Of a stretch of DNA of 12,696 nucleotides, positions 316 through 12,696 are shown in pieces. The stretch is taken from contig CAXTTL010000074.1 in assembly GCA_964247135.1 (NCBI GenBank), positions 6,829 through 19,524 of the forward strand, written 5' to 3'. How positions within the stretch are numbered: position 1 is the first letter of the stretch; each line of letters opens with the position of its first letter. This DNA is from an uncultured Deinococcales bacterium (GTDB taxonomy: Bacteria > Deinococcota > Deinococci > Deinococcales > JAAFIG01). The position numbers and the translations under genes are program-made. Under the pieces are notes generated by a model. That model had not been told where the DNA came from. It saw nothing but the letters and a program-made list of their open reading frames with translations, and did no database searches.

Positions 316-339
316 GTAGGGGCGCTGCTTGCTGCGCCC
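316..339 (+). repeat. GTAG-family REP-like palindrome
   Basis: GTAG followed by GGGCGCTGC-TT-GCTGCGCCC, a GC-rich hairpin with one T/T mismatch. This is the architecture of RAYT-associated REPs. Confidence 0.7.
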
Positions 340-418
340 TTCCCGCGAAATTGGAACGTTATTCGATTCAGTTCATGAATACCGATTTCGCCAACAAAGT
401 CTGGTCAAGAGAACTAAG

Positions 419-1306
419 ATGAACCTCGAGATTCATGATTATTTGGCGTTTACGGATTCCGCAAAAGGTGGGAATTCGGCGGCGGTGGTGTTTGGTTTGG
501 ACATGGACTCGAGCCAAAAAATGCAGGAACTCGCCTCGAGTTTGAACGCGCCAGCCACGGTGTTTGTGGGGGTCAGTGAAAAATTATTTGAAGAAGAATC
601 GGTGTTGCCGTTGCGTTTAAGGTTTTTCACGCCTGAACTCGAGGAGAACATTTGCGGTCATGGAACCATCGCTGCGATTCACGCGATTGCAGCTCGAGGT
701 GAAATCAATGGCTGGAAAATTCCATCAGGTGAATTTCAAATTGAACTGCATGATGGGACCGTGAATGCCAAACTCGAGAAGGGCATTGCTTGGCTCGAGT
801 ACGGTGATGCTCGAGCTTGGGAAGTTGAAATTGATCGTGACGATGTCGCGCTGGCTTTGGGACTCGAGCCTGACGAATTGCACGAGGACATGCCGATTTT
901 GGCAGCCACGGCGGGACGGACAAAACTGATCTGTGGTGTGCCGAGCACCAGTTATCTTGACGCCATCGAACCCGATTATGACCGCATCAAAGCCTTAAAC
1001 CTCGAGACGCAAACAACTGGACTGGTGGCGTTTACCTTTCCAGGTCGCGGCGGGTGTTTTACCGACAGTCGCCATTTTGCGCCGCTTGCAGGAATTCCCG
1101 AAGACATCGCCACGGGCAACGCCCACGCTGCACTTGCGGCATACCTCGCAACGGAGAAATTCTTTGATGATGGTTTAAGAATTTTTTCCGGCGCTCAAGG
1201 ATATGCACTCGGCAGACCGTCCAAACTCGAGGTGAAATGCACTGTGAACAGGGGAGAAGTCTCGAGCGTTTGGGTTGGCGGACGTGCTGTCAGGATCGAA
1301 CCATGA
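419..1306 (+). CDS. PhzF family (DAP epimerase-fold) isomerase, paralogue 1, 295 aa
   Basis: Motifs AFTDSAKGGNSAAVV, RLRFFTPELEENICGHGTIAA, RHFAPLAGIPEDIATGNA, QGYALGRPS and VWVGG. ATG 419 was chosen because family similarity starts there. Confidence 0.9.
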   Translation: MNLEIHDYLAFTDSAKGGNSAAVVFGLDMDSSQKMQELASSLNAPATVFVGVSEKLFEEESVLPLRLRFFTPELEENICGHGTIAAIHAIAARGEINGWKIPSGEFQIELHDGTVNAKLEKGIAWLEYGDARAWEVEIDRDDVALALGLEPDELHEDMPILAATAGRTKLICGVPSTSYLDAIEPDYDRIKALNLETQTTGLVAFTFPGRGGCFTDSRHFAPLAGIPEDIATGNAHAALAAYLATEKFFDDGLRIFSGAQGYALGRPSKLEVKCTVNRGEVSSVWVGGRAVRIEP

Positions 1307-2178
1307 ATATTTTTAAGTACACGGTTTTTGCTGCAAACTCGAGTGAAGGCGCTGGAAAACGCGTTGCCGTCATCGAGTCTGGCAAGCTCGAGGATCACGA
1401 ATTTCAAAAAAGAGCAATTGAATCTGGCGAACCGCTCACGGTTTTTATTGTTTCCTCGAGCAATTCAGAAATTGATCTGCGGGTGTTCACGCCCAAAAAA
1501 GACAAAGGCGAAAGCGACTCTGGTGCGCTGGCGGCGCTCGAGCATTTGAATGCAAAACTCGAGTCCGAAGTCAAAGTCATGATGTCCGAAACCATGACAG
1601 CCAGGCGAATTAACGACATGTGGTACTTGCTGCAAGGCGACGCTCGAGGTTATGAAGTGTCAGTTCCAGACATCGAAACCTACGCGCCGAAAGCCTTGGA
1701 GATTGCGCCAAACGATGCCTCGCTCGAGTACCCAATTGCGGCTGCCACCATCGCACGCCCGAATCTGATCGTGCCAGTGAATAGCTCGGAAATTTTGGAT
1801 TCAATCAATCCCGACTTGGATGCGATTTCAAGGATCAACGAACAAACCAACACTCGAGGTTTGATCGCGGTGTTTATCAATTTGGAATTATTTAAAGACC
1901 CCACTTCACAGCCGCAACGTTCGAGAACCGTGCTGGATTTTCGGTACTTTGCGCCGCTCAAAGGCATTCCCGAAGACAATGCCTCGAGCAACACCTTCGC
2001 CACGCTGGTTGGTTATATGGCGTTTGTTGGGTTGCTGCCCGAAGGTCGCAACCAAGTTCGCGCCTCGCAAGGCTACGCGATTGCACAGCCTTCAGAACTT
2101 TTTGCCATCTGTGAAAGTCAATTTGCTCGAGCCGACGCGGTTTGGGTCGGTGGGCGCGTCCGAAAGGTGAAACCATGA
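1303..2178 (+). CDS. PhzF family paralogue 2 with degenerate active-site motifs, 291 aa
   Basis: ATGA overlap with the previous gene. LRVFTP, RYFAPLKGIPEDNASSN, QGYAIAQPS and VWVGGR align with paralogue 1, but CGH is replaced by SDS. Confidence 0.85.
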   Translation: MNIFKYTVFAANSSEGAGKRVAVIESGKLEDHEFQKRAIESGEPLTVFIVSSSNSEIDLRVFTPKKDKGESDSGALAALEHLNAKLESEVKVMMSETMTARRINDMWYLLQGDARGYEVSVPDIETYAPKALEIAPNDASLEYPIAAATIARPNLIVPVNSSEILDSINPDLDAISRINEQTNTRGLIAVFINLELFKDPTSQPQRSRTVLDFRYFAPLKGIPEDNASSNTFATLVGYMAFVGLLPEGRNQVRASQGYAIAQPSELFAICESQFARADAVWVGGRVRKVKP

Positions 2179-2651
2179 TCGTTCGTCACTGGCAAGAATC
2201 CGATATTCCCGCCGCGCTGCGTTTGATGCGTGAACTGGCGGTGTTTGAAGCATATTTGGACAGTTTCGCCGCCACCGAGAGTATTTTGCTCGAGCAAGGT
2301 TTTAAGCTTCAACCACCCAATTTTTACGTGCTGGTTGCCGAACTCGACTCGAGCATTGAAGGTGTGCTGGTCTATTATTTCTTGCCCTACACCGCCAGCG
2401 CCAAACCGATGTTGTTCATCAAAGAACTTTTTGTAGAAGACGGCGCTCGAGGTCATGGTTTGGGGCACGCCTTAATGCGCAAAGCTTCGAGCATTGCGTT
2501 GGAAAAAGGTTGCGTCGGCATGAAATGGACGGTGGCGAACTGGAACGAACCCGCCAAAAAATTCTATGCTGGACTCGGCGCAACTGCAAACCCAGTCTGG
2601 ATTGAGCATACGTTGACTGGCGAGGCACTCGAGAAATTGGGGAAGGCATGA
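2175..2651 (+). CDS. GNAT N-acetyltransferase, SSAT/diamine (thialysine) acetyltransferase-like, 158 aa
   Basis: ATGA overlap. Motifs LMRELAVFE, LFIKELFV, the acetyl-CoA loop RGHGLG and WTVANWNEPAKKFY. Confidence 0.9.
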   Translation: MIVRHWQESDIPAALRLMRELAVFEAYLDSFAATESILLEQGFKLQPPNFYVLVAELDSSIEGVLVYYFLPYTASAKPMLFIKELFVEDGARGHGLGHALMRKASSIALEKGCVGMKWTVANWNEPAKKFYAGLGATANPVWIEHTLTGEALEKLGKA

Positions 2652-3004
2652 ACAACAGTTTTAAAAGCACATTTGACCAATTTGTCCAAGCGCTGAATGC
2701 TCGAGATGCCGACACGCTCGAGACGATCATTGCCGATGGATTCCGCTTTACGGGCACTGCCGCGCAATTTCAGGACAAAGCCGAGCGCATCCGCACGGTT
2801 CAGACGAGTCCCGCGTTTCCAACACTCAAATACCGCAATATCGAATTTGAAACTTTTGCCGAGACTTGTCTCGCGTATGCTGAATTCCAGTACGAAAACA
2901 TTGAAGGCGATGTGCTCGAGTTTGGACGCGCCACTTTTGTTTTTGTGAAACGAATGGAAGCTTGGAAACTTGTGGCGCAGCACAACTCGCACGTCAAGAG
3001 GTGA
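2648..3004 (+). CDS. NTF2-like / DUF4440 (SnoaL-like) protein, 118 aa
   Basis: ATGA overlap. The pattern FVQALNARDADTLETIIADGFRF ... RATFVFVKRMEAWKLVAQHNS is typical of DUF4440. Confidence 0.85.
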   Translation: MNNSFKSTFDQFVQALNARDADTLETIIADGFRFTGTAAQFQDKAERIRTVQTSPAFPTLKYRNIEFETFAETCLAYAEFQYENIEGDVLEFGRATFVFVKRMEAWKLVAQHNSHVKR

Positions 3005-3007
3005 ATT

Positions 3008-4249
3008 ATGAACCCGCAAACGATGGCTGAAAAAATTCTTTCAAAACGCGGCACCAAAACCGTGTTTGCGGGCGATCTTGCCGTGGTCGAAGTGGACAAC
3101 GTGATGATCGTGGACAGCATCGCGGAGAGCGTGATCGAAATTCTCGAGACTGAACTCGAAGCGCTGCCCAAATACCCCGAACGCGTCAGCATCGTGATCG
3201 ATCATGTTGCGCCCGCCTCGAGCGTCAACGTCGCAAAATCGCATCAGGCGGCTCGAGCGTTTGCCGCCAAAACGGGCGTGAAACTCTTTGATGTTGGACG
3301 CGGAATCTGCCATCAGGTCTTGATCGAAGAACGCCTCGCCTTTCCTGGCGCGATTGTGCTCGGTTCGGATTCGCACAGCACCACTTACGGCGCGGTTGGC
3401 GCGTTCGGTACAGGCATGGGCGCGTCAGACATTGCCATTGCCGCCGCCAGTGGTAAAACCTGGCTGCGCGTTCCCGAAAGTGTCAAGGTCAATCTCGAGG
3501 GTGAATTGATTGGTGATGTCAGCGCCAAAGACGTCGCGCTCGAGATGATTCGGGTTTTAACCGCTGACGGTGCGACCTACCAAAGCATCGAAATTCATGC
3601 CGGAGATCGCTTCTCGAGGGGCGAACGCATGACGCTGGCGAATCTGTGCGTTGAAGCAGGCGCGAAAGCGGGCATGGTCGTTCCTGGTGGTGAAATTTTA
3701 ACGATGTACGAAGTGCCAGATTGGGTTTATCCCGACGAGGGCGCGAAATACATCAGAGAAATCACCATCGACCTCTCGAGCCTGACGCCGCGCATGAGCG
3801 TCCCAAGTTATGTGGACAACGTCGAAACCGTCGCCAGTTTGCGCGGAAAGCACGTCGATCAAGTTTTTATTGGCACTTGCACAAACGGGCGACTCGAGGA
3901 TTTGCACGTTGCCGCCGCGATTTTAAAAGGTCGCAAGGTTGCCGCGAACACGCGCCTTCTGGTAATTCCCGCCAGTTCCGAAGTGCTCGAGCAAGCGATG
4001 GCGGATGGTTCGCTGTTAACGATCATTCAAGCGGGTGCAACGCTTTCCACCCCTGGTTGTGGTCCTTGCATGGGCAGGCATCAGGGTGTGCTCGCGCCAG
4101 GGGAAGTTTGCGTTTCGACCAGTAACCGCAACTTTATTGGACGCATGGGCGATGCCAAAGCCGAGATTTACTTGGCAAGTCCTGCTGTGGCGGCAGCGAC
4201 CGCAATCATGGGTAGTATTGCGCTGCCAGAGGATTTGGTTTATGTCTAA
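3008..4249 (+). CDS. lysT: Homoaconitase large subunit (LeuC/HacA family)
   Basis: Motifs IDHVAP, GICHQV, GSDSHSTTYGA, the Fe-S ligands in GTCTNGR and GCGPCMG, and STSNRNF. Clustering with lysW/lysX favours homoaconitase over LeuC. Confidence 0.92.
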   Translation: MNPQTMAEKILSKRGTKTVFAGDLAVVEVDNVMIVDSIAESVIEILETELEALPKYPERVSIVIDHVAPASSVNVAKSHQAARAFAAKTGVKLFDVGRGICHQVLIEERLAFPGAIVLGSDSHSTTYGAVGAFGTGMGASDIAIAAASGKTWLRVPESVKVNLEGELIGDVSAKDVALEMIRVLTADGATYQSIEIHAGDRFSRGERMTLANLCVEAGAKAGMVVPGGEILTMYEVPDWVYPDEGAKYIREITIDLSSLTPRMSVPSYVDNVETVASLRGKHVDQVFIGTCTNGRLEDLHVAAAILKGRKVAANTRLLVIPASSEVLEQAMADGSLLTIIQAGATLSTPGCGPCMGRHQGVLAPGEVCVSTSNRNFIGRMGDAKAEIYLASPAVAAATAIMGSIALPEDLVYV

Positions 4250-4853
4250 ACTCGAGAAACGTGAACAAAAGAATCTCGAGACTGCGCTTTTTAGGGCAAA
4301 AGAACGGGTGATAGAACTCGAGGAGTCTGTGCAACAGCAGAAATTTGTTGTCGATTCGACTTATGTGAGTGGTTGTTTGGATGCCATTTCCGATCTTTTT
4401 CCCTATGATGAGGGTACATTGCACGCAGATTTTGTATTCGGAAAAATTCCAAAACATAAGCGAATTAAAGACTTTTCAGATAAAAGTCAGTTTGAACATT
4501 TACTGATCAGTGAATCGAGAGATGCAATTGAACCGGTCGTGTGTACTTGGTTTGAAGAAAAGATCAAGATTCTAATACCCCGATTTTTAAACTTTAAAAA
4601 TGGTGCTCTGCAAACAAAACTAAACACCCAACAATCAGAATGTTTTCTCGAAACCCTCAAACAACAGGCACATCGCGTTTCCAATGGTATCGCTTTAAGT
4701 CTGATCAATTTGGCAAAAAATGTGACCGAAGCGGGAAAAGAATGGTCAATATATTTAGAAAAAAGGGAAATGGGTTCGCTAATTTTTGACTTTAAACATT
4801 TGGATGCTCATCTCCAATGTGCGTTTCAGATAGTTGATGAAATCTATGATTAA
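4242..4853 (+). CDS. Hypothetical AT-rich protein, 203 aa, inserted between lysT and lysU
   Basis: ATG 4242 overlaps the lysT stop by 8 bp and has AGAGGA upstream. Long open frame in AT-rich DNA. No family recognised. Confidence 0.7.
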   Translation: MSKLEKREQKNLETALFRAKERVIELEESVQQQKFVVDSTYVSGCLDAISDLFPYDEGTLHADFVFGKIPKHKRIKDFSDKSQFEHLLISESRDAIEPVVCTWFEEKIKILIPRFLNFKNGALQTKLNTQQSECFLETLKQQAHRVSNGIALSLINLAKNVTEAGKEWSIYLEKREMGSLIFDFKHLDAHLQCAFQIVDEIYD

Positions 4854-4941
4854 TGTTGACTCCCATTCAAAACCCCCTGAATTGCTATTTGAAGTTGAAG
4901 CGATTGCGGTACGCCCCGATGAAGACCTGATTTTGAGTTGA
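4846..4941 (+). pseudogene. 31-codon ORF resembling the C-terminus of a RidA/YjgF/YER057c/UK114 protein (probable gene remnant)
   Basis: Hand translation gives MINVDSHSKPPELLFEVEAIAVRPDEDLILS*. PELLFEVEAIAV matches the Rid-family C-terminal strand motif. Absent from the supplied ORF track, probably because of its length. Confidence 0.6.
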
Positions 4942-4957
4942 ACGGAAGGATTTTAAC

Positions 4958-5455
4958 ATGGCTCGAGTTTGGAAATTTGGGGACAGCATCAACACCGACG
5001 ACATTCTGCCTGGAAAGTACGCGCCGTTCATGGTCGGCGCAGATGTTTTTCACAAGTACGCTTTCGCGCATTTTCGCCCCGAATTTGCGAGCGAGGTCAA
5101 ACCTGGCGATCTGCTGGTCGGTGGGCGCAACTGGGGTTTAGGCTCGAGCCGAGAGTACGCGCCCAAAGCCCTCAAGAAACTCGGGGTTGGTGGGATCATC
5201 GCGCAGTCTTACGCCCGAATTCATTACCGCAACCTTCTCAACCTTGGCATTCCCGCTTTTGAAAGCCTCAAGATTCCAGAAAAGCTTGTCGATGGTGAAG
5301 AGGTTGAATTTGACCTCGAGACTGGTAGAATTACCCGTTTGGATGGCACGGTTTTACAGCTTCCGCCACCGCCAGAATTTTTGCGCGAAGCCTTAAAGGA
5401 AGGCAGTATTCTCGAGTATTACAAGAAGTACCAGAAGTTTCCAGGAGAGTCATGA
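4958..5455 (+). CDS. lysU: Homoaconitase small subunit (LeuD/HacB family)
   Basis: Motifs WKFGDSINTDDILPGKY, GRNWGLGSSREYA and SYARIHYRNLLNLG. SD GGAAGGA upstream. Confidence 0.92.
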   Translation: MARVWKFGDSINTDDILPGKYAPFMVGADVFHKYAFAHFRPEFASEVKPGDLLVGGRNWGLGSSREYAPKALKKLGVGGIIAQSYARIHYRNLLNLGIPAFESLKIPEKLVDGEEVEFDLETGRITRLDGTVLQLPPPPEFLREALKEGSILEYYKKYQKFPGES

Positions 5456-5754
5456 ACGAAGAAGAACAAAGTTTATTTGTCAATTGTCCCGTCTGTGCCG
5501 AAGAACTCGAGATTCCGTCTGAAGCTTGGGACGAGTTTGAAGAGGGCGATATTCTGGTCTGCGAATCGTGCGGCGCAGAATTGCAAATCGCCAGCCTCGA
5601 CCCGCCCGAATTCGAGCTTCTGGGTTTATTGACCGAATGCCCCAGTTGCGGTGCGGAAATCGAACTGACCGACGAGCAACTCGAGGAAAACACCAAAGTC
5701 ACCTGTCCAGATTGCAACACCACGTTCAACGTGGAATTTGAGGAAGCTGAATAA
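5452..5754 (+). CDS. lysV: Acidic double zinc-ribbon protein, LysW paralogue (LysV-like), 100 aa
   Basis: Four CxxC pairs (CPVC, CESC, CPSC, CPDC) and a LysW-like CGAELQIASLDPP, with no EDWGE tail. It sits between lysU and lysW, as lysV does in Thermus. Confidence 0.7.
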   Translation: MNEEEQSLFVNCPVCAEELEIPSEAWDEFEEGDILVCESCGAELQIASLDPPEFELLGLLTECPSCGAEIELTDEQLEENTKVTCPDCNTTFNVEFEEAE

Positions 5755-5784
5755 ATTGCATTCGTCGGGAAAAACCCCGTTGGA

Positions 5785-5809
5785 GTAGGGGTGAACCTTG
5801 TGTTCACCC
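5785..5809 (+). repeat. GTAG-family REP-like palindrome
   Basis: GTAG followed by GGGTGAAC-CTTGT-GTTCACCC, a perfect 8-bp stem, in the lysV-lysW gap. Confidence 0.75.
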
Positions 5810-5847
5810 AAAGCACGAAATACGTTTTATGGTGTGGAGGAAAGAAC

Positions 5848-6021
5848 ATGGCAAAAATTAAGTTTGAAAACCCAGAATCAGGCGCAATCATCGAACTCGA
5901 GAATCCAGAACTTGGCGAGATTGTAATTGACGACGAGACCGGCGCAGAGTTTGAAGTCGTCAGCCTCGAGCCGCCCAAGCTCGAAGCCGCCCCGCAAGAG
6001 GCAGAGGATTGGGGCGAATAA
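5848..6021 (+). CDS. lysW: Amino-group carrier protein LysW, 57 aa, cysteine-free
   Basis: C-terminal EDWGE, very acidic, GGAGG SD at 5836-5840, immediately upstream of lysX. Confidence 0.95.
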   Translation: MAKIKFENPESGAIIELENPELGEIVIDDETGAEFEVVSLEPPKLEAAPQEAEDWGE

Positions 6022-6027
6022 GCGTTC

Positions 6028-6873
6028 ATGGCTGAACTTGCCCTGGTGTATGACCGTGTCCGCGAGGACGAGAAAATGTTGTTCGCTGCCCTCGATGGTC
6101 TTGGCGTGGCGTATGACAAAGTGTACGCGCCTCAACTCAGTTTTGATTTTCACAGCACCAAACCGCCCGAGTGGAAAGTGGTGATTGAGCGTTGCGTCTC
6201 GCAATCTCGAGGTTACGCGATCAGTGCGTCACTTGAGGCTTGGGGTGTGGAGGTTGTGAATCCGTCTTTGGTGATTGCCAATTGCGGCGATAAGCTTGTG
6301 ACCAATGCGCTTCTTGCCAAGAACGGTATTGCCACGCCGCGCACGCAGGTTTGTTTTGATGGCGAGACCGCTTTAAAAGTCATCGAGGAGATGGGCTATC
6401 CGGTCATCATGAAGCCCCCCGTGGGTTCGTGGGGACGTTTGCTGTCACTGATTCGTGATCGTGACGCCGCCGAAACTGTGCTCGAGCATAAAGAAGTGCT
6501 TGGCGGTTATCAGCATCAGATTTTTTACATTCAAGAGGTGGTGAACAAACCAGACCGCGACATTCGGGCGTTTGTCGCCGACGGAAGGTGTATCGCCGCG
6601 ATTTACCGCAACTCGAGCCATTGGATCACCAACACTGCCCGTGGTGGCAAAGCCGAAAATTGTCCGGTCACGCCAGAAATCGCCAGCCTTGCCGAACGCA
6701 GCGCGAAAGCCGTTAGCGGCGCGGTCGTGGCGGTCGATTTGATGGAAGACCCAACTCGAGGTTTGATGGTGATTGAAGTCAATCACACGATGGAGTTTAA
6801 GAATTCCGTCAGCACAACCGGCGTGGACATTCCCAAGAAAATTGCGGAATACGCTATTTCAAGAATGAAGTAA
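6028..6873 (+). CDS. lysX: Alpha-aminoadipate--LysW ligase (RimK-type ATP-grasp)
   Basis: Motifs [42 protein letters not shown] and [11 protein letters not shown]. Confidence 0.95.
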
Positions 6874-6874
6874 C

Positions 6875-7144
6875 ATGAATTTTCTCGAGCGCGGTTTGGA
6901 CATTATCAATGAATTCAAATTGAATTCTGATGTCCCCAGCCGTGCTTTTAACTTGAGCAAAGAAGTGTTGAAAAGCACGAATTACAGTTTGAGTTCGTGC
7001 ACACCAACCAAAAATCTCGAATCGGAGTTGGGCGATGAGATGTTTTCATTACTGGTGTTCGCCTCGAGTTTAAATCTGGATTTGGCTGTTGCCCTCGAGA
7101 AATCCTTGCGAAAAATGCGTGCTCGGGTTGAATATGGATTATGA
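6875..7144 (+). CDS. MazG-like (all-alpha NTP pyrophosphohydrolase) protein, possibly inactivated, 89 aa
   Basis: LSKEVLK ... LESELGDEMFSLLVFASSLNLDLAVALEKSLRKM matches the ExGD helix of the family. The first ExxE motif appears to be missing. Confidence 0.65.
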   Translation: MNFLERGLDIINEFKLNSDVPSRAFNLSKEVLKSTNYSLSSCTPTKNLESELGDEMFSLLVFASSLNLDLAVALEKSLRKMRARVEYGL

Positions 7145-7799
7145 AAAAATCGATTCAGACTCCTTGCTGAATATGCCATTCCTAAAGTTTGAAGATGATC
7201 AAAAAATTCCATTTTATGTTTGGAATTATGATTTAACCAAAAATGGTTGGGATTGGCGATTACCTCCACGCGCCATCGGCAACTTGCGAATGTCACGATT
7301 CAGAAATGTGCCATTGATTTCGATTGTCGCGTTGTTTGGGTGTGGTTCTGTCGCAGGTTTGTTTTTTGGTTTGATGCAATTTTTTCGCGGCGAGGTTCGG
7401 GTGGCACCACAACTCATGTGGCAGTTTTTCGGTTTATACCTATTTTGGATGCTGCTCGCCGTGGCTGCCCTGTGGGTACTATTGAGGACTGTAAAGAAAT
7501 TGCTCGAGCCTGTGGTGTGCTCTCTTGCCATAAATTCCGAGGGGGGTGAGATTGAGCTTGATGGTTTAAAACGCTTTTGGTCGTTTCGTCCTCAGCCAAT
7601 GGGAAGCATAATGATTCGAGACGTTCTCAATGTCAACCTTCACAAAAACGGTGCTGCTGAAGAAGAATTTGCATTGTGGCTCGAGTTGAAAAGTGGAAAA
7701 CGAATTTATTTGAGCGTTTACGATATGAAAAAAGAGGAAGCATCATTTTTAAAAATGTTGCTCGAGCGCGAGTTTAAAGCGAGTGAATCAAGGTTTTAA
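7134..7799 (+). CDS. Hypothetical membrane protein with two predicted TM helices, 221 aa
   Basis: ATG 7134 overlaps the previous gene. Hydrophobic runs VPLISIVALFGCGSVAGLFFGLMQFF and FFGLYLFWMLLAVAALWVLL. Confidence 0.7.
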   Translation: MDYEKIDSDSLLNMPFLKFEDDQKIPFYVWNYDLTKNGWDWRLPPRAIGNLRMSRFRNVPLISIVALFGCGSVAGLFFGLMQFFRGEVRVAPQLMWQFFGLYLFWMLLAVAALWVLLRTVKKLLEPVVCSLAINSEGGEIELDGLKRFWSFRPQPMGSIMIRDVLNVNLHKNGAAEEEFALWLELKSGKRIYLSVYDMKKEEASFLKMLLEREFKASESRF

Positions 7800-8746
7800 G
7801 AGTTTGGAACACTCGAGCGCAACGCCATGAAAGGCTCGAGTGGTTCGATTTGGTATTCACCTGCGTTGGCTGGCACAATCACCGTTTCAAACTTGCCCAA
7901 GGTCACTCGAGATTCGCCCAGCATCACCTCGGCGCGACCTTGCGTGAGGGTGATTGAATGAAAACTCGAGTTTTCGGTGTCGCAGACCATATCAATGTCC
8001 GTGCCGTGAATTTCCTCGAGTTGAAAGTATTCGCAGCTCACACGGGTTTCTACCGCCTTTTGAGCTTGCATAACGTGATGATTGATCTGACCTGTCAAGT
8101 TTGGATTGGTGACGGCAACGCTTTGCGCCAAGTGCAAGGCACGCCCAGCGCTGGCGGGTCGATTCCAATCCCAGACGCGGTAGGTCGTGTCGGAGGTTTG
8201 TTGCACCTCGTAAATCAAAAATCCTGGTCCGAGCGCGTGCAGTGTGCCTGCGGGCATCATGATGGTTGCCCCCGTTTCGACCACGTGCTTTTGTGAAACG
8301 CTTAAAATACTGCCGTCCCGAATGGCTGCCTCGAGTTCGGCGGGAGTTGTACCTGGTTTGACGCCGGCGATCAATTCCGCGCCAGGTACGGCATCCAGAA
8401 CGTGCCAAGCTTCGGTTTTGCCAAATTGACCTTTTCCCTCAAGTTTGATTGCCTGTTCGTCATTGGGGTGTACTTGAATGGAGAGCCAATCCGCGCAATC
8501 CAAAATTTTGATCAGCAACGGAAACCGTCTTCCAGTGCGCCCCATCACTCGAGCGCCAAGAAGTTCGGTGCCAAGTGTTCGGGCGACCTCCTCGAGCGTT
8601 TGCCCTGCGAAACTGCCACTTTTGATTTTGTTGCGTTCAAACACGAGCCAGGCTTCACCGTAAGGTTTGTGAGGGTCTGGCTTTAATTGTTGACCACCCC
8701 AGACGCGGTGGTGGTATTCGGGTACGACTTGTATGAGTTCAGGCAT
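7796..8746 (-). CDS. manA: Mannose-6-phosphate isomerase, class I (short ManA/YvyI type)
   Basis: Motifs [38 protein letters not shown] and [24 protein letters not shown] upstream. Confidence 0.93.
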
Positions 8747-8794
8747 GGTTTATCCTTTTGAATGGTAATGAACTGCGTTTCCAGCCCCATAAGT

Positions 8795-11401
8795 CTAACC
8801 TGTATTTCGTAACCCTGCCGCAATGCCTTGGATACTCAGCAGCAATGCCCGTTCCAAATTGGCACGGTCGGGGTGATCGCTGGGCAGGGCGCGATACCGT
8901 TTCAGGAGTTCGACTTGGACGTGATGGACTGGGTCAACATAAGGGTTGCGCAATTCAATGCTTCGTTTCAAGCGCAGTTCTCGCTCGAGGATGTCCGTGC
9001 CGATGGCGTTTTTCACCAGTTGCACGGTGCGTTCAAACTCGAGTTTGATGCTTTCAAAAGTCTTGCTATCTTTGCCCAGGCTCGAGTACCGCGCAAAAAT
9101 GCCCATGTCGGTTTTGGCGAGGCTCATCTGGGCGTTGTCAAGTAAACTGCGGAAAAATCCCCATTCGCGGTACATTTCCTGCGCCAGACCTGGCTGAAAG
9201 TTCTCGATGGTGGCGAGTCCGGCGCCCAGTCCGTACCAGCCTGGAATATTGGCTCGCGTTTGGGTCCAAGCCATGACCCAAGGGATGGCGCGAAGATTCT
9301 CGAGCGTTGCCTTTCCAGGGCGGCGAACTGGACGCGAGGCAATTTTTAAGCCCGCGATTTCGTTGATCGGTGTGGCAGCCTCAAAGAACGCCAGGAAGTC
9401 TTTGGAAGTCACCAGGCTCGAGTACGCCTCGCTCGAGGCATTGGCGGCGCTCTGAAGGGCTGTGCGGTAGTGTTCTGGGTAGACCTTGGGTTGTTCGCTG
9501 GCTTTAAGCAGCAAGGCATGAAGCAGTTGCTCGAGGTTGCGTTTGGCGATGGCAGGGTTGGCGTAACGTTCACTCAATGCCTCGCCCTGTTCTGTGATGC
9601 GCAAACCGCGCCCGATGGTGCCTTCGGGTTGCGCCAGAATGCCCCTTGCGGCTGGACCGCCGCCGCGCCCGATGCTGGTGCCGCGACCATGAAAGAAGGT
9701 GTGCTCGACCCCAGCCGTCTCGAGGACTTTGGTCAGTTCCTCCTGAGCGCGGTACAACGCCCAGTTCGCCGCCAGAAAGCCCGCCTCTTTGTTGGAATCC
9801 GAATACCCGAGCATGATCTCCTGCGCTCGAGCGCCCAGTTTGGCGCGGTAAACGCGACTCGCCATCAGTTGCGTCACGATCTGCGGCGCATTCTCGAGGT
9901 CGTCGGGCGTTTCAAACAGCGGCGAGACATCGACGTTTGAGAGTCCCGCCTCACGCGCCAGAATCAACACCTCGAGGATGTCCGAAACGCTCTCGGCGTG
10001 GGAAATCACATAACGCCCAAACGCTTGATTGCCGTTTTCGATCATGGCGTCGCGCACCGCCTCGATAGGCTCGAGCGCCAGGGCAATGTTGTGTGATCGG
10101 CTTGCGCCGACGGGCAGCAACGGTCGGTCGGAAGCCAGTTCTCGCTCGAGCAAAGCGACCCGCTCAACCTCCGTCAGGCTTAAATATGCCCCGTGAGCGC
10201 CACCAACCGCCAGCAATTCTTGCACCGCAATTTCAAGATTTCCAGAGAATTCACGCACGTCCAAACTGACCAGATGCGTACCAAAGGTTTTGGCTCGAGC
10301 CAAGACTGGACGCGCAAAAACCCTTGCCGTGCGGTTTAAACCCGTTGCCTCGAGCGAATTGACCACCCGTTCGAGGACTGGAACGGCTTGGGGTTTCGGG
10401 TGCTCTCCCAGGCTGTCGTGCAGCGTTTCAATCTCGTTGCGCCAAGGTTCATCGTTCGTGCTCAGGTCGCGCCCGATGGTCACCCGAGCGCGGTGCCCAG
10501 ACGCTTGGGCAAAAAGTGTTTTTAAATTGGTTCGCAAATCCTCGGTGGCTCGAGCCGCATGGTACGCCAGGGTTTCGCGGGTGACTTGCGGGGTGACGTT
10601 GGGGTTGCCGTCACGGTCGCCGCCGATCCAAGAATAAAGCTTGAAGGGCAAGCTCAAGGTGCTGCGTTTGCCCAAAATGCCAACACCAAATTCGGCTTCG
10701 AGCGCCTCACGCAAATCAAACTCGAGCGCGGGCAGGGCGCTGGCAATATTGCCCAGGTACGCCAGACCACCCTGCACCTCGTCGCGCACGGTTGGGTTTC
10801 TCGAGTGCAACTCCAGGGTGCTCCAGAGTGCCTCGACCCGCGCCGAAATCCGATCAAGCACCACCTCGCGCAAGTCTTCACGCTCGAGGTCATTGAGATC
10901 ATTGCTGATGGCATCCAAATGCGCTCGAACTGTGCGGCGGCGCATTTCGGTCGGGTGCGCCGTGAAGGTCAAACCAAGCTCGAGCTTGGCGATCAAAGCC
11001 AAAATTTCTTTGACATCCAAACCTCGAGCCTTAAGCTGCCTCACCGTGTCGCGCAAACTTTGCTTGCGCGGCTCGTTGGTGCGCGGATCAATTCCAGGCT
11101 CGAACAGACCGTGCCGCCGAACGCGGTGACGTTCCTCTGCCAGGTTCACCAACCAAAAATAATGTGCGAACGCCCGCACCAGATTCTCGGCGTCGAACAA
11201 ACCCAAATTCGAGATCAGCGCCTCGAGTTTTACGACCAAATCCGTGTTCTCAGGCTCGAGACGAATGCGTTTGGTCAATTCGCGCACTTCCTCCTCGAGT
11301 TGATAAAAACGGTTCCCGACCTGTTCGCGCAAAATTGCGCCCAACACGTGTCCGAGGGCGTCCACGTCACGGGCGAGTGGGTCACGGGTTTCATTTTGCA
11401 T
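8795..11401 (-). CDS. ppc: Phosphoenolpyruvate carboxylase
   Basis: Motifs FTAHPTE, GGDRDGNP, PLFET, QEIMLGYSDSNK, FFHGRG, TEQGE, LRAIPW and the C-terminal RNTG. Confidence 0.97.
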   Translation of the reverse strand: MQNETRDPLARDVDALGHVLGAILREQVGNRFYQLEEEVRELTKRIRLEPENTDLVVKLEALISNLGLFDAENLVRAFAHYFWLVNLAEERHRVRRHGLFEPGIDPRTNEPRKQSLRDTVRQLKARGLDVKEILALIAKLELGLTFTAHPTEMRRRTVRAHLDAISNDLNDLEREDLREVVLDRISARVEALWSTLELHSRNPTVRDEVQGGLAYLGNIASALPALEFDLREALEAEFGVGILGKRSTLSLPFKLYSWIGGDRDGNPNVTPQVTRETLAYHAARATEDLRTNLKTLFAQASGHRARVTIGRDLSTNDEPWRNEIETLHDSLGEHPKPQAVPVLERVVNSLEATGLNRTARVFARPVLARAKTFGTHLVSLDVREFSGNLEIAVQELLAVGGAHGAYLSLTEVERVALLERELASDRPLLPVGASRSHNIALALEPIEAVRDAMIENGNQAFGRYVISHAESVSDILEVLILAREAGLSNVDVSPLFETPDDLENAPQIVTQLMASRVYRAKLGARAQEIMLGYSDSNKEAGFLAANWALYRAQEELTKVLETAGVEHTFFHGRGTSIGRGGGPAARGILAQPEGTIGRGLRITEQGEALSERYANPAIAKRNLEQLLHALLLKASEQPKVYPEHYRTALQSAANASSEAYSSLVTSKDFLAFFEAATPINEIAGLKIASRPVRRPGKATLENLRAIPWVMAWTQTRANIPGWYGLGAGLATIENFQPGLAQEMYREWGFFRSLLDNAQMSLAKTDMGIFARYSSLGKDSKTFESIKLEFERTVQLVKNAIGTDILERELRLKRSIELRNPYVDPVHHVQVELLKRYRALPSDHPDRANLERALLLSIQGIAAGLRNTG

Positions 11402-12203
11402 TGTTCACCCCTTGAAAAATTTCACCCTCGAGTTTGCCAACTTCATCGCCCTCGAGATAACTGTAACGCGCCATGCGGGTCACGACATTGTATGTCAAAT
11501 CGAATTCGACCGCGTTGAAAATGGACTTCCCCGGGGCAACCTCATTTTTTTGCGGTAACCCCGTCCTGAACTTGTAAATTGCGGCATCCAAACCCATGCC
11601 GATGCTCGAGTCCTGCGGACCGGTCATGCCAGAATCGGTTTGAAACGCCGTGCCTTGGGTTAAGAATCTGGTATCAGCCGTGGGAACGTGTGTGTGCGTG
11701 CCGATGAGCGCCGCGATTCGTCCGTCAAAATGCCAGGCGAAACACGCCTTTTCCGAGGTCGCCTCGGCATGAAAGTCCACGAACACCGCACCCAAATTGT
11801 CCTGCTCGAGAATTTCCTCGAGTGCCGCGAAGGGGTCATCTAAGGGGTTCATGAAAATCCGACCCAAAAAATTGGTGACTGTGATCCGTTCGCCATTGAC
11901 ATCAAAACTGGCTGCCCCGCGACCTGGCGCACCGCTCGGGTAATTTTTTGGACGCACAATCCTCGGGTCATCAATTAGACTTAAGACCTCACGGTTGTCC
12001 CAAGCATGGTTGCCCAAGGTTAGGCAATCGACGCCAGACTTTGTAATGCTCGAGAACGAATCTTTGTTCAGCCCAAAACCGCCAGCCGCGTTCTCCGCGT
12101 TGGCAATCACAAAATCGTATTTGCTTCTGATCGTCGGCAAATGGCTCGAGACGAGGTTTCGCCCGGGTTTGCCGAAAATGTCACCAATGAACAAAACCTT
12201 CAC
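11391..12203 (-). CDS. ymdB: YmdB/TIGR00282 family metallophosphoesterase
   Basis: Motifs LFIGDIFGKPG, NAENAAGG, TLGNHAWD, VDFHAEATSEK and GTHTHVPTAD. GTG start; overlaps ppc by 11 bp. Confidence 0.93.
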   Translation of the reverse strand: MKVLFIGDIFGKPGRNLVSSHLPTIRSKYDFVIANAENAAGGFGLNKDSFSSITKSGVDCLTLGNHAWDNREVLSLIDDPRIVRPKNYPSGAPGRGAASFDVNGERITVTNFLGRIFMNPLDDPFAALEEILEQDNLGAVFVDFHAEATSEKACFAWHFDGRIAALIGTHTHVPTADTRFLTQGTAFQTDSGMTGPQDSSIGMGLDAAIYKFRTGLPQKNEVAPGKSIFNAVEFDLTYNVVTRMARYSYLEGDEVGKLEGEIFQGVNNAK

Positions 12204-12209
12204 GGGTAC

Positions 12210-12215
12210 AGAATA
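12210..12215 (-). promoter_or_regulatory. Putative -10 box (TATTCT) of a leaderless ymdB transcript
   Basis: The minus strand reads TATTCT-GTACCC-GTG, a TAnnnT hexamer 6 nt before the start codon, with no SD. Confidence 0.6.
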
Positions 12216-12324
12216 ACCTGATGCTCGAGTTGCACGATTCCCGAACGTTTGTTCAGAAAATCGAAACTCGAGCTTGGAAGTTTGAAGGACTCAATTGTGA
12301 TTTGTGAAATGTAAGTACGACCAC

Positions 12325-12696
12325 CTAGTCGTTTCGTTTGTATACACGCACATCAGTCCCAAACTTTTCAAACCATTCTCGAATCGGTTCAATGATGCTT
12401 TGTCCAGGCAATTGATTCATCACTTCTGGTTGAGTCACTCCAGGTCGAATATTGAAATCGGTCGCCAGCAATTGATCTGTGCCGAATCGCATCAGGTCAA
12501 CCGCCCAAATCGGAAAATGAACCGCAGGAGTCCAACCATCTGCGCCAACCCGAGTTTCAATCTGTGGACTCCAGTTCGAGCGCCACTCGTCTCGAGAGCG
12601 AAAGCGCAGGTAAAACGTCTTCTTGCCTATTTTCAAAATGCGGTATGACACGCTGAACTCGAGTCCTTCGATGGGTGATTTTGGAATCCACCAGGA
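12325..12696 (-). CDS. Hypothetical protein, probably 5'-truncated by the window edge
   Basis: The frame of ORF 12325-12651 stays open to position 12696 (SWWIPKSPIEGLEFSV...). Same strand as ymdB-ppc-manA. No family recognised. Confidence 0.55.
   Translation of the reverse strand, partial: SWWIPKSPIEGLEFSVSYRILKIGKKTFYLRFRSRDEWRSNWSPQIETRVGADGWTPAVHFPIWAVDLMRFGTDQLLATDFNIRPGVTQPEVMNQLPGQSIIEPIREWFEKFGTDVRVYKRND

Follow-up and report, generated by a model that had tools for sequence, protein, structure and literature searches.

The palindrome CTCGAG is hyper-iterated in one family of uncultured Deinococcales. The window analysed is a stretch of 12,696 nt (contig C74:6829-19524) from the draft genome G000, which comprises 5.09 Mb in 386 contigs with a G+C content of 52.7% and is 84% complete. 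The original prediction, made from the letters of the window, was that CTCGAG behaves there like the highly iterated palindrome HIP1 of cyanobacteria, with about 102 copies against about 3 expected and no copies of the same-composition palindromes GTCGAC and GAGCTC. The window contains exactly 102 copies (~1 per 124 bp). In 200 dinucleotide-preserving shuffles of the window the mean was 2.84 and the maximum 8. GTCGAC and GAGCTC were both absent (0 and 0). CTCGAG is almost certainly a real hyper-iterated palindrome of this family, present at ~1 per 150-230 bp, and the process behind it still acts on the DNA itself, on the whole hexamer and site by site.

The excess is genome-wide. G000 contains 33,925 copies of CTCGAG, 1 per 150 bp, which is more than 2-fold above any other hexamer. 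A second-order Markov model with the sites masked in training, the check proposed with the original prediction, gave an expected number of 564. The excess is therefore ~60-fold, and a genome-wide over-representation of at least about 15-fold is characteristic of short palindromes of the HIP1 type. About 4% of all G000 bases are inside a copy. The bases on either side show no more than a weak bias (G at -1 in 39% and C at +1 in 38%), so the unit is the hexamer, as had been proposed. The central tetramer TCGA is not the driver, since outside CTCGAG it is present at an ordinary level of ~4.1 per kb (20,681 copies). The other 62% of all TCGA in G000 is inside the hexamer.

The position of the copies relative to genes was determined with our own crude gene calls (4,279 genes, 84% of bases). 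Copies were read as CTC-GAG in 17,774 cases, as xCT-CGA-Gxx in 4,075 and as xxC-TCG-AGx in 6,483, with 5,593 outside genes or on gene borders. The density was 6.64 per kb in coding and 6.77 per kb in non-coding DNA. CTCGAG thus shows the frame independence and presence between genes that are typical of HIP1, and the equal densities bear out the pattern described for the window. The genes contain 28,300 copies. Shuffling of synonymous codons within genes left 3,915-4,026 copies, and shuffling of codon order left 1,618-1,755 (5 shuffles each). The excess over the protein-preserving shuffles is 7-fold, in agreement with the earlier statement that Leu-Glu codon use is insufficient to explain the pattern. 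The Leu codon ahead of Glu was CTC in 83% of cases compared to 15% elsewhere, and the Glu codon following Leu was GAG in 84% compared to 32% elsewhere.

A by-product of codon, dicodon or TCGA bias, or of restriction-driven avoidance of other palindromes, has a negligible probability. Although 63% of the in-gene copies read Leu-Glu and many other palindromes are strongly avoided in G000, the 7-fold excess was obtained against shuffles that preserve both proteins and codon usage. Coding and non-coding densities are equal, codon choice depends on context and is not global, TCGA is ordinary outside the hexamer and the site-masked expectation is 564. Avoidance of other words is unable to raise one word 60-fold. 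The near-absent palindromes of G000 are GGCC with 380 copies (0 in the window), GGGCCC with 1, CGGCCG with 3, CGTACG with 5, GGATCC with 7, CCGCGG with 11 and GCATGC with 17. The near-absence of so many palindromes suggests a long history of many restriction systems.

Whole-genome counts were made for 19 genomes of the family (five genera including G000, 57-94% complete). All 19 had ~4.3-6.8 CTCGAG per kb. Twelve genomes of four neighbouring families had 0.03-2.9 per kb. An extension to related Deinococcota, raised in the original prediction, therefore held for the family and not for its neighbours. One genus of a neighbouring family (represented by G019) was intermediate, with 1.55 per kb and very few GAGCTC. 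Three genomes of one neighbouring family (G020, G024 and G028) were at the opposite extreme with 128-457 copies in 4.2-4.8 Mb. For the phosphoenolpyruvate (PEP) carboxylase encoded in the window, the closest records were from Deinococcales metagenome-assembled genomes (MAGs) at 93-95% amino-acid identity, followed by Deinococcus and myxobacteria at ~50%. The assignment to Deinococcota implied in the original prediction was therefore correct. At these loci the close relatives and a second Deinococcales MAG of low G+C content had 7.6-9.1 CTCGAG per kb, compared to 0-0.3 per kb in named Deinococcus (0-3 per 22 kb) and ~1 per kb in Thermus. Nearly every TCGA in the Thermus loci was inside CTCGAG, for example 17/18, 9/9 and 12/12.

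An artefact of assembly, binning or contamination might be suspected in a draft of 386 contigs that is 84% complete, and can be given practically no weight. The density was equal in the 18 other genomes, one of which (G011) is a single contig of 5.1 Mb with 23,515 sites, which shows that fragmentary assembly is not the source of the trait. CTCGAG was also abundant in independently deposited records and at orthologous positions. Codon bias and artefact are excluded for practical purposes. The excess is neither a TCGA bias nor limited to the window, which were named beforehand among the ways in which the prediction could fail; it is genome-wide and family-wide.

The maintenance of sites was measured by pairwise comparison of G000 with a genome of the same genus, G005. 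Of 400 kb of G005, 301 kb was aligned at 85.3% identity. CTCGAG was intact at 1,697 of 2,131 sites from the G000 side and at 1,697 of 1,987 sites from the G005 side. Among the 1,056 hexamers aligned at least 100 times it ranked first; the others were 45.8% intact when pooled, with a 99th percentile of 67%. Conservation between genomes exceeded that of the codons, as is expected of a HIP1-type palindrome. When the dipeptide was conserved the CTCGAG dicodon was unchanged in 1,016 of 1,117 cases, compared to 55.8% for other dicodons and 36.1% for Leu-Glu spelled otherwise. Leu-CTC was retained in 94.1% of cases ahead of GAG and in 58.5% elsewhere, and Glu-GAG in 95.4% following CTC and in 71.8% elsewhere. 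Non-coding copies were intact in 169 of 231 cases compared to 40.4% of other non-coding hexamers. The prediction of a genome-wide process that creates or preserves the site was supported by this top rank, which includes synonymous and non-coding positions, and by the presence of the trait in 19/19 family genomes.

Both losses and gains were affected. The synonymous loss rate of CTCGAG relative to background was 0.113 and 0.142. On the gain side, with changes unpolarised, CTT>CTC was recorded in 25/25 cases completing CTCGAG compared to 160/817 elsewhere, CTG>CTC in 6/7 compared to 170/2,517 and GAA>GAG in 27/46 compared to 512/2,466. One-off neighbours were paired with CTCGAG in the sister genome 3-13x above the same codon change elsewhere. 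In a three-genome alignment of the window 56 of 80 assessable copies were intact in both same-genus relatives, compared to 26.5% of 8,360 control hexamers. The copy at 12224 was replaced by a transition neighbour in one of these relatives. G000 has 22,412 one-off neighbours in addition to its 33,925 sites, and with neutral change the outflux of sites would exceed the influx 27-fold. The balance would be restored by a stationary bias in fixation, of scaled strength S ~3.3 per site, which would fit both the abundances and the rates. The model predicts a loss rate of 0.126 of neutral, close to the two synonymous rates observed.

The pressure for CTCGAG is strong enough to fix amino-acid changes, and for this reason Leu-Glu is over-represented 2.4-fold in the G000 proteome (22,863 observed, 9,678 expected). 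It is the most over-represented dipeptide, with about 13,000 surplus pairs. The observed to expected ratio of Glu-Leu was 1.01. In PEP carboxylase 2-3 of the 16 Leu-Glu copies were also Leu-Glu in most of 74 orthologues outside the family, and the other copies replace residues such as LV, LQ, LT, IG or CR. Dipeptide identity at the PEP carboxylase sites was 251/1177 in frame 0 and 11/296 and 2/294 in the other frames, with a background of 0.287.

Lost sites were replaced equally by the six transition neighbours, with 27-40 cases each between G000 and G005. The neighbours of CTCGAG were at 0.8-3.3x expectation in G000 and none was depleted; their excess peaked at positions 2 and 5. Neither a CpG hotspot nor a specially repaired position was present among these replacements and neighbours. 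The bias of one-letter deviations to the outer positions, a further property of HIP1, was not seen for CTCGAG. The AvaI-type motif CYCGRG was considered as the true motif and rejected. CCCGAG and CTCGGG were 3.2-fold enriched, but look like a mutational halo because their counts and flux equal those of the other transition neighbours.

The sites behave independently of one another. No local compensation was detected, as gains within 12-200 bp of losses in the other genome equalled the null fractions. Spacing in G000 was near exponential with a coefficient of variation of 0.96. A dip below ~60 bp was weaker between non-coding copies and is thus mostly coding constraint. No helical phasing at 10-11 bp was found. 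None of 1,473 5-kb segments had one site per kb or fewer and the poorest contig had 2.6 per kb. The G005 DNA that did not align to G000 still had 5.3 sites per kb. The 66 tRNA genes contained 10 copies compared to 34 at genome density.

One CRISPR array was found in G000 at a contig end (C221:6962-8131) with 17 repeats, and its 37-base repeat contains CTCGAG. The same repeat family was present in 8/19 family genomes as three variants, all of which keep CTCGAG. In total 94 unique spacers were collected from 9 arrays of 6 genomes (2,796 hexamer positions, 52.9% G+C). CTCGAG was the top hexamer with 23 copies, compared to 18.6 expected at host density and 0.3-0.7 expected from random models (Poisson P below 1e-26). 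The spacers are not copies of the chromosome, since just one of the 94 had a near full-length match in G000 (35/37, in an ordinary chromosomal context). Another matched a dispersed short repeat and the rest were of chance length. The DNA pool entering cells of the family thus appears, from the spacers, to be as motif-rich as the hosts. A spacer content at host density argues against CTCGAG as a mark that tells own DNA from that of invaders, and is compatible with exchange among kin, or with mobile elements that have resided in the family for a long time.

For two of the 94 spacers a match with 2-4 mismatches was found in an ordinary chromosomal gene of the genus. The first, spacer 10 of the G000 array, matched a 172-amino-acid open reading frame (ORF) at G000:C25:927-961. 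This region was considered as a prophage, which was rejected as a PHROGs scan showed ordinary chromosomal genes. A spacer of G002 matched a GAF-PAS sensor gene in G005 (C20) and in G002 itself (C483) at 88-89%, and this gene adjoins one for gamma-glutamyltranspeptidase. When the 36 spacers of the G002 array were compared to five same-genus genomes a further match was discarded as a degenerate solitary repeat and not a protospacer. It looks as if some spacers, at least, derive from the chromosomes of relatives. The HK97-type capsid (PF05065), sought as a handle on prophages, was over the cut-off in 0/19 genomes. A viral collection was searched for three CTCGAG within 78 bp. The 80 loci among the matches listed were mostly from G+C-rich phages (58-70% in the densest 25) with a median of 2.1 per kb, and these are uninformative on the phages of the clade because codon usage can explain them. 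The competence protein ComEC (PF03772) was present in 18/19 family genomes, which is non-discriminating as the control matched 10/14 genomes.

The DNA methyltransferases of G000 comprised three large MmeI- or helicase-fused enzymes, three to four beta-class N6/N4 enzymes, two C5 enzymes, one N6_Mtase and one D12 enzyme. No match to Vsr (PF03852) or to a TaqI-type target recognition domain (PF12950) was found in G000, which is 84% complete. The XhoI-family nuclease (PF04555) had no match in G000 either, with a model that also matched no control genome. None of the methyltransferase classes was constant in the family. Beta-class N6/N4 enzymes numbered 0 in the single-contig genome G011 and were also missing from G015. 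C5 enzymes numbered 0 in G008, a 91% complete genome with 21,883 sites. D12 orthogroups were present in 3/6 genomes each. Clustering of 64 methyltransferase ORFs, drawn from the best 30 loci per enzyme class, gave a widest orthogroup that covered 9/19 genomes and was absent from G000. No methyltransferase orthologue common to the 19 genomes (57-94% complete) was found among these loci. As a positive control, a pair formed by a weak RE_SacI-like gene and a D12 methylase was detectable in 5/6 genomes of the genus.

In G000 the RE_SacI-like gene directly adjoins the D12 methyltransferase gene (C320:1304-2985) and the same pair was present in G005 (C63). RE_SacI-like matches were found in 5/6 genomes of the genus and once outside it, in a genome from a different genus. 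This is probably a SacI-type restriction-modification pair. GAGCTC is absent (0) from the 5.09 Mb of G000 and occurs 25 times or fewer in 16/19 family genomes. The D12 methyltransferase of G000 was 83% identical to that of another genus (G011:C1:1609708-1610454) and 75% identical to that of its own genus (G005:C63), which suggests transfer within the family. A beta-class methyltransferase gene at C189:4856-5632 has a G+C content of 40% and zero CTCGAG and looks like a recent import.

The favoured cause of the abundance of CTCGAG is a bias arising during DNA exchange between kin, to which we give a rough probability of 0.4. Some step in the uptake, processing or recombination of incoming DNA would favour DNA bearing the whole site. 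Alleles lacking the site would then give way to alleles that have it, a kind of molecular drive also proposed for DNA uptake sequences and, more recently, for HIP1. Such a bias could operate with or without methylation. This reading is ranked first because it accounts for the motif-rich spacers, for the lack of motif-poor DNA and for the lack of a conserved enzyme, and because it parallels results on HIP1. In a more specific form, rather doubtful at present, CTCGAG would be a kin-recognition word for DNA exchange. Its reader would act at each site, would not be a canonical conserved methyltransferase, Vsr or XhoI-type enzyme, and would drive the word to saturation in chromosomes and mobile DNA.

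Several points weigh against exchange as the cause. The tie between CTCGAG and DNA exchange in these uncultured bacteria is circumstantial. Motif-rich spacers would also be expected if resident phages and plasmids were shaped by an intracellular process, and just 2/94 spacers could be placed. Known uptake sequences have 9-12 bases and occur ~1 per kb. With a 6-mer at 1 per 150 bp an extra site adds little to a fragment already carrying dozens, and for this reason a drive of S ~3 per site is hard to obtain unless it acts locally. Cultured Thermus and Deinococcus are regarded as competent for DNA of any sequence, and nearly all bacteria have ComEC. The lack of a conserved enzyme could also mislead: enzymes that are not orthologous can share a specificity, which sequence does not reveal, the family genomes are 57-94% complete and clustering was confined to the best 30 loci per class. 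Stationarity and equal mutation rates are premises of the equilibrium model. By majority rule over three genomes the window gave 13 gains and 23 losses, which are small numbers and only roughly balanced.

Methylation-linked biased repair, the model of Elhai for HIP1, is ranked second and is unlikely, if a serious contender. A CTCGAG-specific methyltransferase would mark the sites, and methylation-dependent mismatch repair would convert near-sites to full sites in intermediates of replication or recombination. Restriction-modification systems classically target CTCGAG. Several DNA methyltransferases were present in every genome examined, and a repair bias per heteroduplex would give a strong drive per site more easily than uptake. 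Methylation of CTCGAG as 5-methylcytosine (m5C) exists in nature according to PMC8112702, and each cyanobacterial HIP is accompanied by a cognate methylase in the account given in PMC4390886. The patchy methyltransferases described above, with no shared orthologue, do not fit this model, nor does the lack of Vsr and of a TaqI-type recognition domain in G000. Losses were equal at the six positions and no neighbour was depleted, unlike the outcome of single-mismatch repair or the outer-position bias reported for HIP1 (PMC4390886).

Selection for a chromosomal function of each site is ranked third and is improbable. Each site might bind an abundant nucleoid protein, or serve a repair nuclease as a Chi-like signal, with tiny benefits that are effective in very large populations. 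In coding and non-coding DNA alike the sites keep their positions between genomes, they are spread very evenly along the genome, and selection on chromosomal distribution has been argued for HIP1 (PMC5861425). Losses are uncompensated by nearby gains, helical phasing is lacking and the short-range repulsion is largely coding constraint. Extrachromosomal DNA sampled by CRISPR has the same density, which is unexpected for a signal of purely chromosomal architecture. None of the mechanisms listed in the original prediction is proved. Methylation loses support through the lack of a shared orthologue and of Vsr, a nucleoid-protein array gains none in view of the lack of phasing and compensation, and uptake or recombination gains some, indirectly, from the motif-rich spacers.

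CTCGAG resembles several known systems. HIP1 (GCGATCGC) and the alternate HIPs of cyanobacteria were described by Elhai 2015 (PMC4390886) and by Xu, Lawrence and Durand 2018 (PMC5861425), and in the portions seen both treat HIP as cyanobacterial. Some cyanobacteria exceed one HIP1 motif per gene (PMC5861425). HIP1 is reported to raise natural transformation and has lately been put forward as an uptake signal; a Chi-like role has also been suggested for it. Like HIP1, CTCGAG is a short G+C-rich palindrome, tens-fold enriched, present in all frames and between genes, conserved beyond codons and lineage-wide. Unlike HIP1 it is a 6-mer and not an 8-mer, and it belongs to another phylum. At 1 per 150 bp its density is several times that of HIP1. 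A conserved orphan methylase cognate to CTCGAG is not evident, and its one-letter deviations lack an outer-position bias.

The DNA uptake sequences of Neisseria (DUS) and the uptake signal sequences of Pasteurellaceae (USS) are similarly in excess genome-wide, in genes and spacers, are kept by a bias, accompany competence genes and are common to kin. In contrast to CTCGAG they are not palindromic, in addition to being longer and rarer (9-12 bases, ~1 per kb), and their uptake bias has been demonstrated by experiment. Very-short-patch repair by Dcm and Vsr in Escherichia coli is also biased to a methylase target and changes the frequency of the oligomer CCWGG. Its effect is modest and specific to one mismatch, whereas the effect on CTCGAG is ~60-fold and alike at six positions. 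Vsr is paired with the C5 methylase of its target, and neither part of such a pair is constant here, with no PF03852 match in G000 and no C5 methylase in G008. Chi, the signal of RecBCD and AddAB, is also an over-represented short word and marks own DNA in recombinational repair. Unlike CTCGAG, Chi sites are asymmetric, oriented with replication and much rarer (~1 per 4-5 kb). No report of CTCGAG hyper-abundance in bacteria was found in the literature searched, although the supplementary tables of the HIP1 papers, outside the search, might list oligomers of other phyla. The mentions of CTCGAG found concern the honey bee, methylated motifs of hot-spring communities and m5C mapping, with no report of hyper-iteration among them.

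The features of the window are listed in Table 1. Between 329 and 12203 it encodes two PhzF-like proteins, aconitase-family large and small subunits, a LysX-type ATP-grasp protein of the alpha-aminoadipate route to lysine, a type I mannose-6-phosphate isomerase, PEP carboxylase and a YmdB-like phosphoesterase. The copies within the main ORFs are distributed 52 / 17 / 22 by frame, and 11 are outside ORFs. The original prediction had assigned the copies of the first PhzF-like gene to CTC-GAG seven times, to xxC-TCG-AGx three times (508, 535 and 1261) and to xCT-CGA-Gxx twice (693 and 810), and all were correct. The peptide contexts it had given for the copies at 5143 (in full NWGLGSSREY) and 6206 were also right, and the copies at 12224 and 12267 are between genes, with 9 other copies outside the listed ORFs. 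Repeats were present at both ends of the window. Positions 1-125 contain ~2.5 tandem copies of a 37-base unit, with copies of 90-96% identity on at least 5 other G000 contigs and in relatives, often near contig ends. This is a dispersed repeat family. The last 126 bases (12571-12696) are 96% identical to contig C307:4542-4667 and are another repeated element or a duplicated gene end.

Table 1. Features of the 12,696-nt window and the CTCGAG copies associated with them.
Feature	Coordinates	Strand	Details
Span of the 102 CTCGAG copies	425..12663		First copy at 425, last at 12658-12663
PhzF-like gene	329..1306	+	PF02567, E 2.6e-47; 12 CTCGAG in all three frames
Three copies just past the aconitase large-subunit gene	4251..4322		Copies at 4251, 4275 and 4317, outside main ORFs
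Aconitase small-subunit-like gene	4958..5455	+	PF00694; copy at 5143 in peptide GSSRE
LysX/RimK ATP-grasp gene	6028..6873	+	PF22626, PF08443; copy at 6206 in peptide QSRG
PEP carboxylase gene	8795..11401	-	PF00311; 24 CTCGAG (16 / 4 / 4 by frame)
Two intergenic copies	12224..12272		Copies at 12224 and 12267, outside listed ORFs

For three decades HIP1 has lacked an explanation, and it was regarded as a peculiarity of cyanobacteria. With a second case, independent and more extreme, palindrome hyper-iteration becomes a recurrent evolutionary outcome and not a cyanobacterial oddity. The patchy methyltransferases and uniform residual substitutions of this family, set against the conserved orphan methylases of HIP1, provide a contrast able to separate the hypotheses. 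CTCGAG is a very sharp marker for binning and host assignment. In cloning work XhoI or TaqI would shred DNA of the family unless it is modified. The most over-represented dipeptide of the proteome, Leu-Glu, is dictated by the motif. The spacers at host density indicate that incoming DNA belongs to the same sequence world, linking the motif to gene flow. If CTCGAG were a kin-recognition word, no denser self-propagating sequence signal would be known from bacteria. The HIP phenomenon would then have arisen a second time, independently, and the explanation of CTCGAG could hold for HIP1 too.

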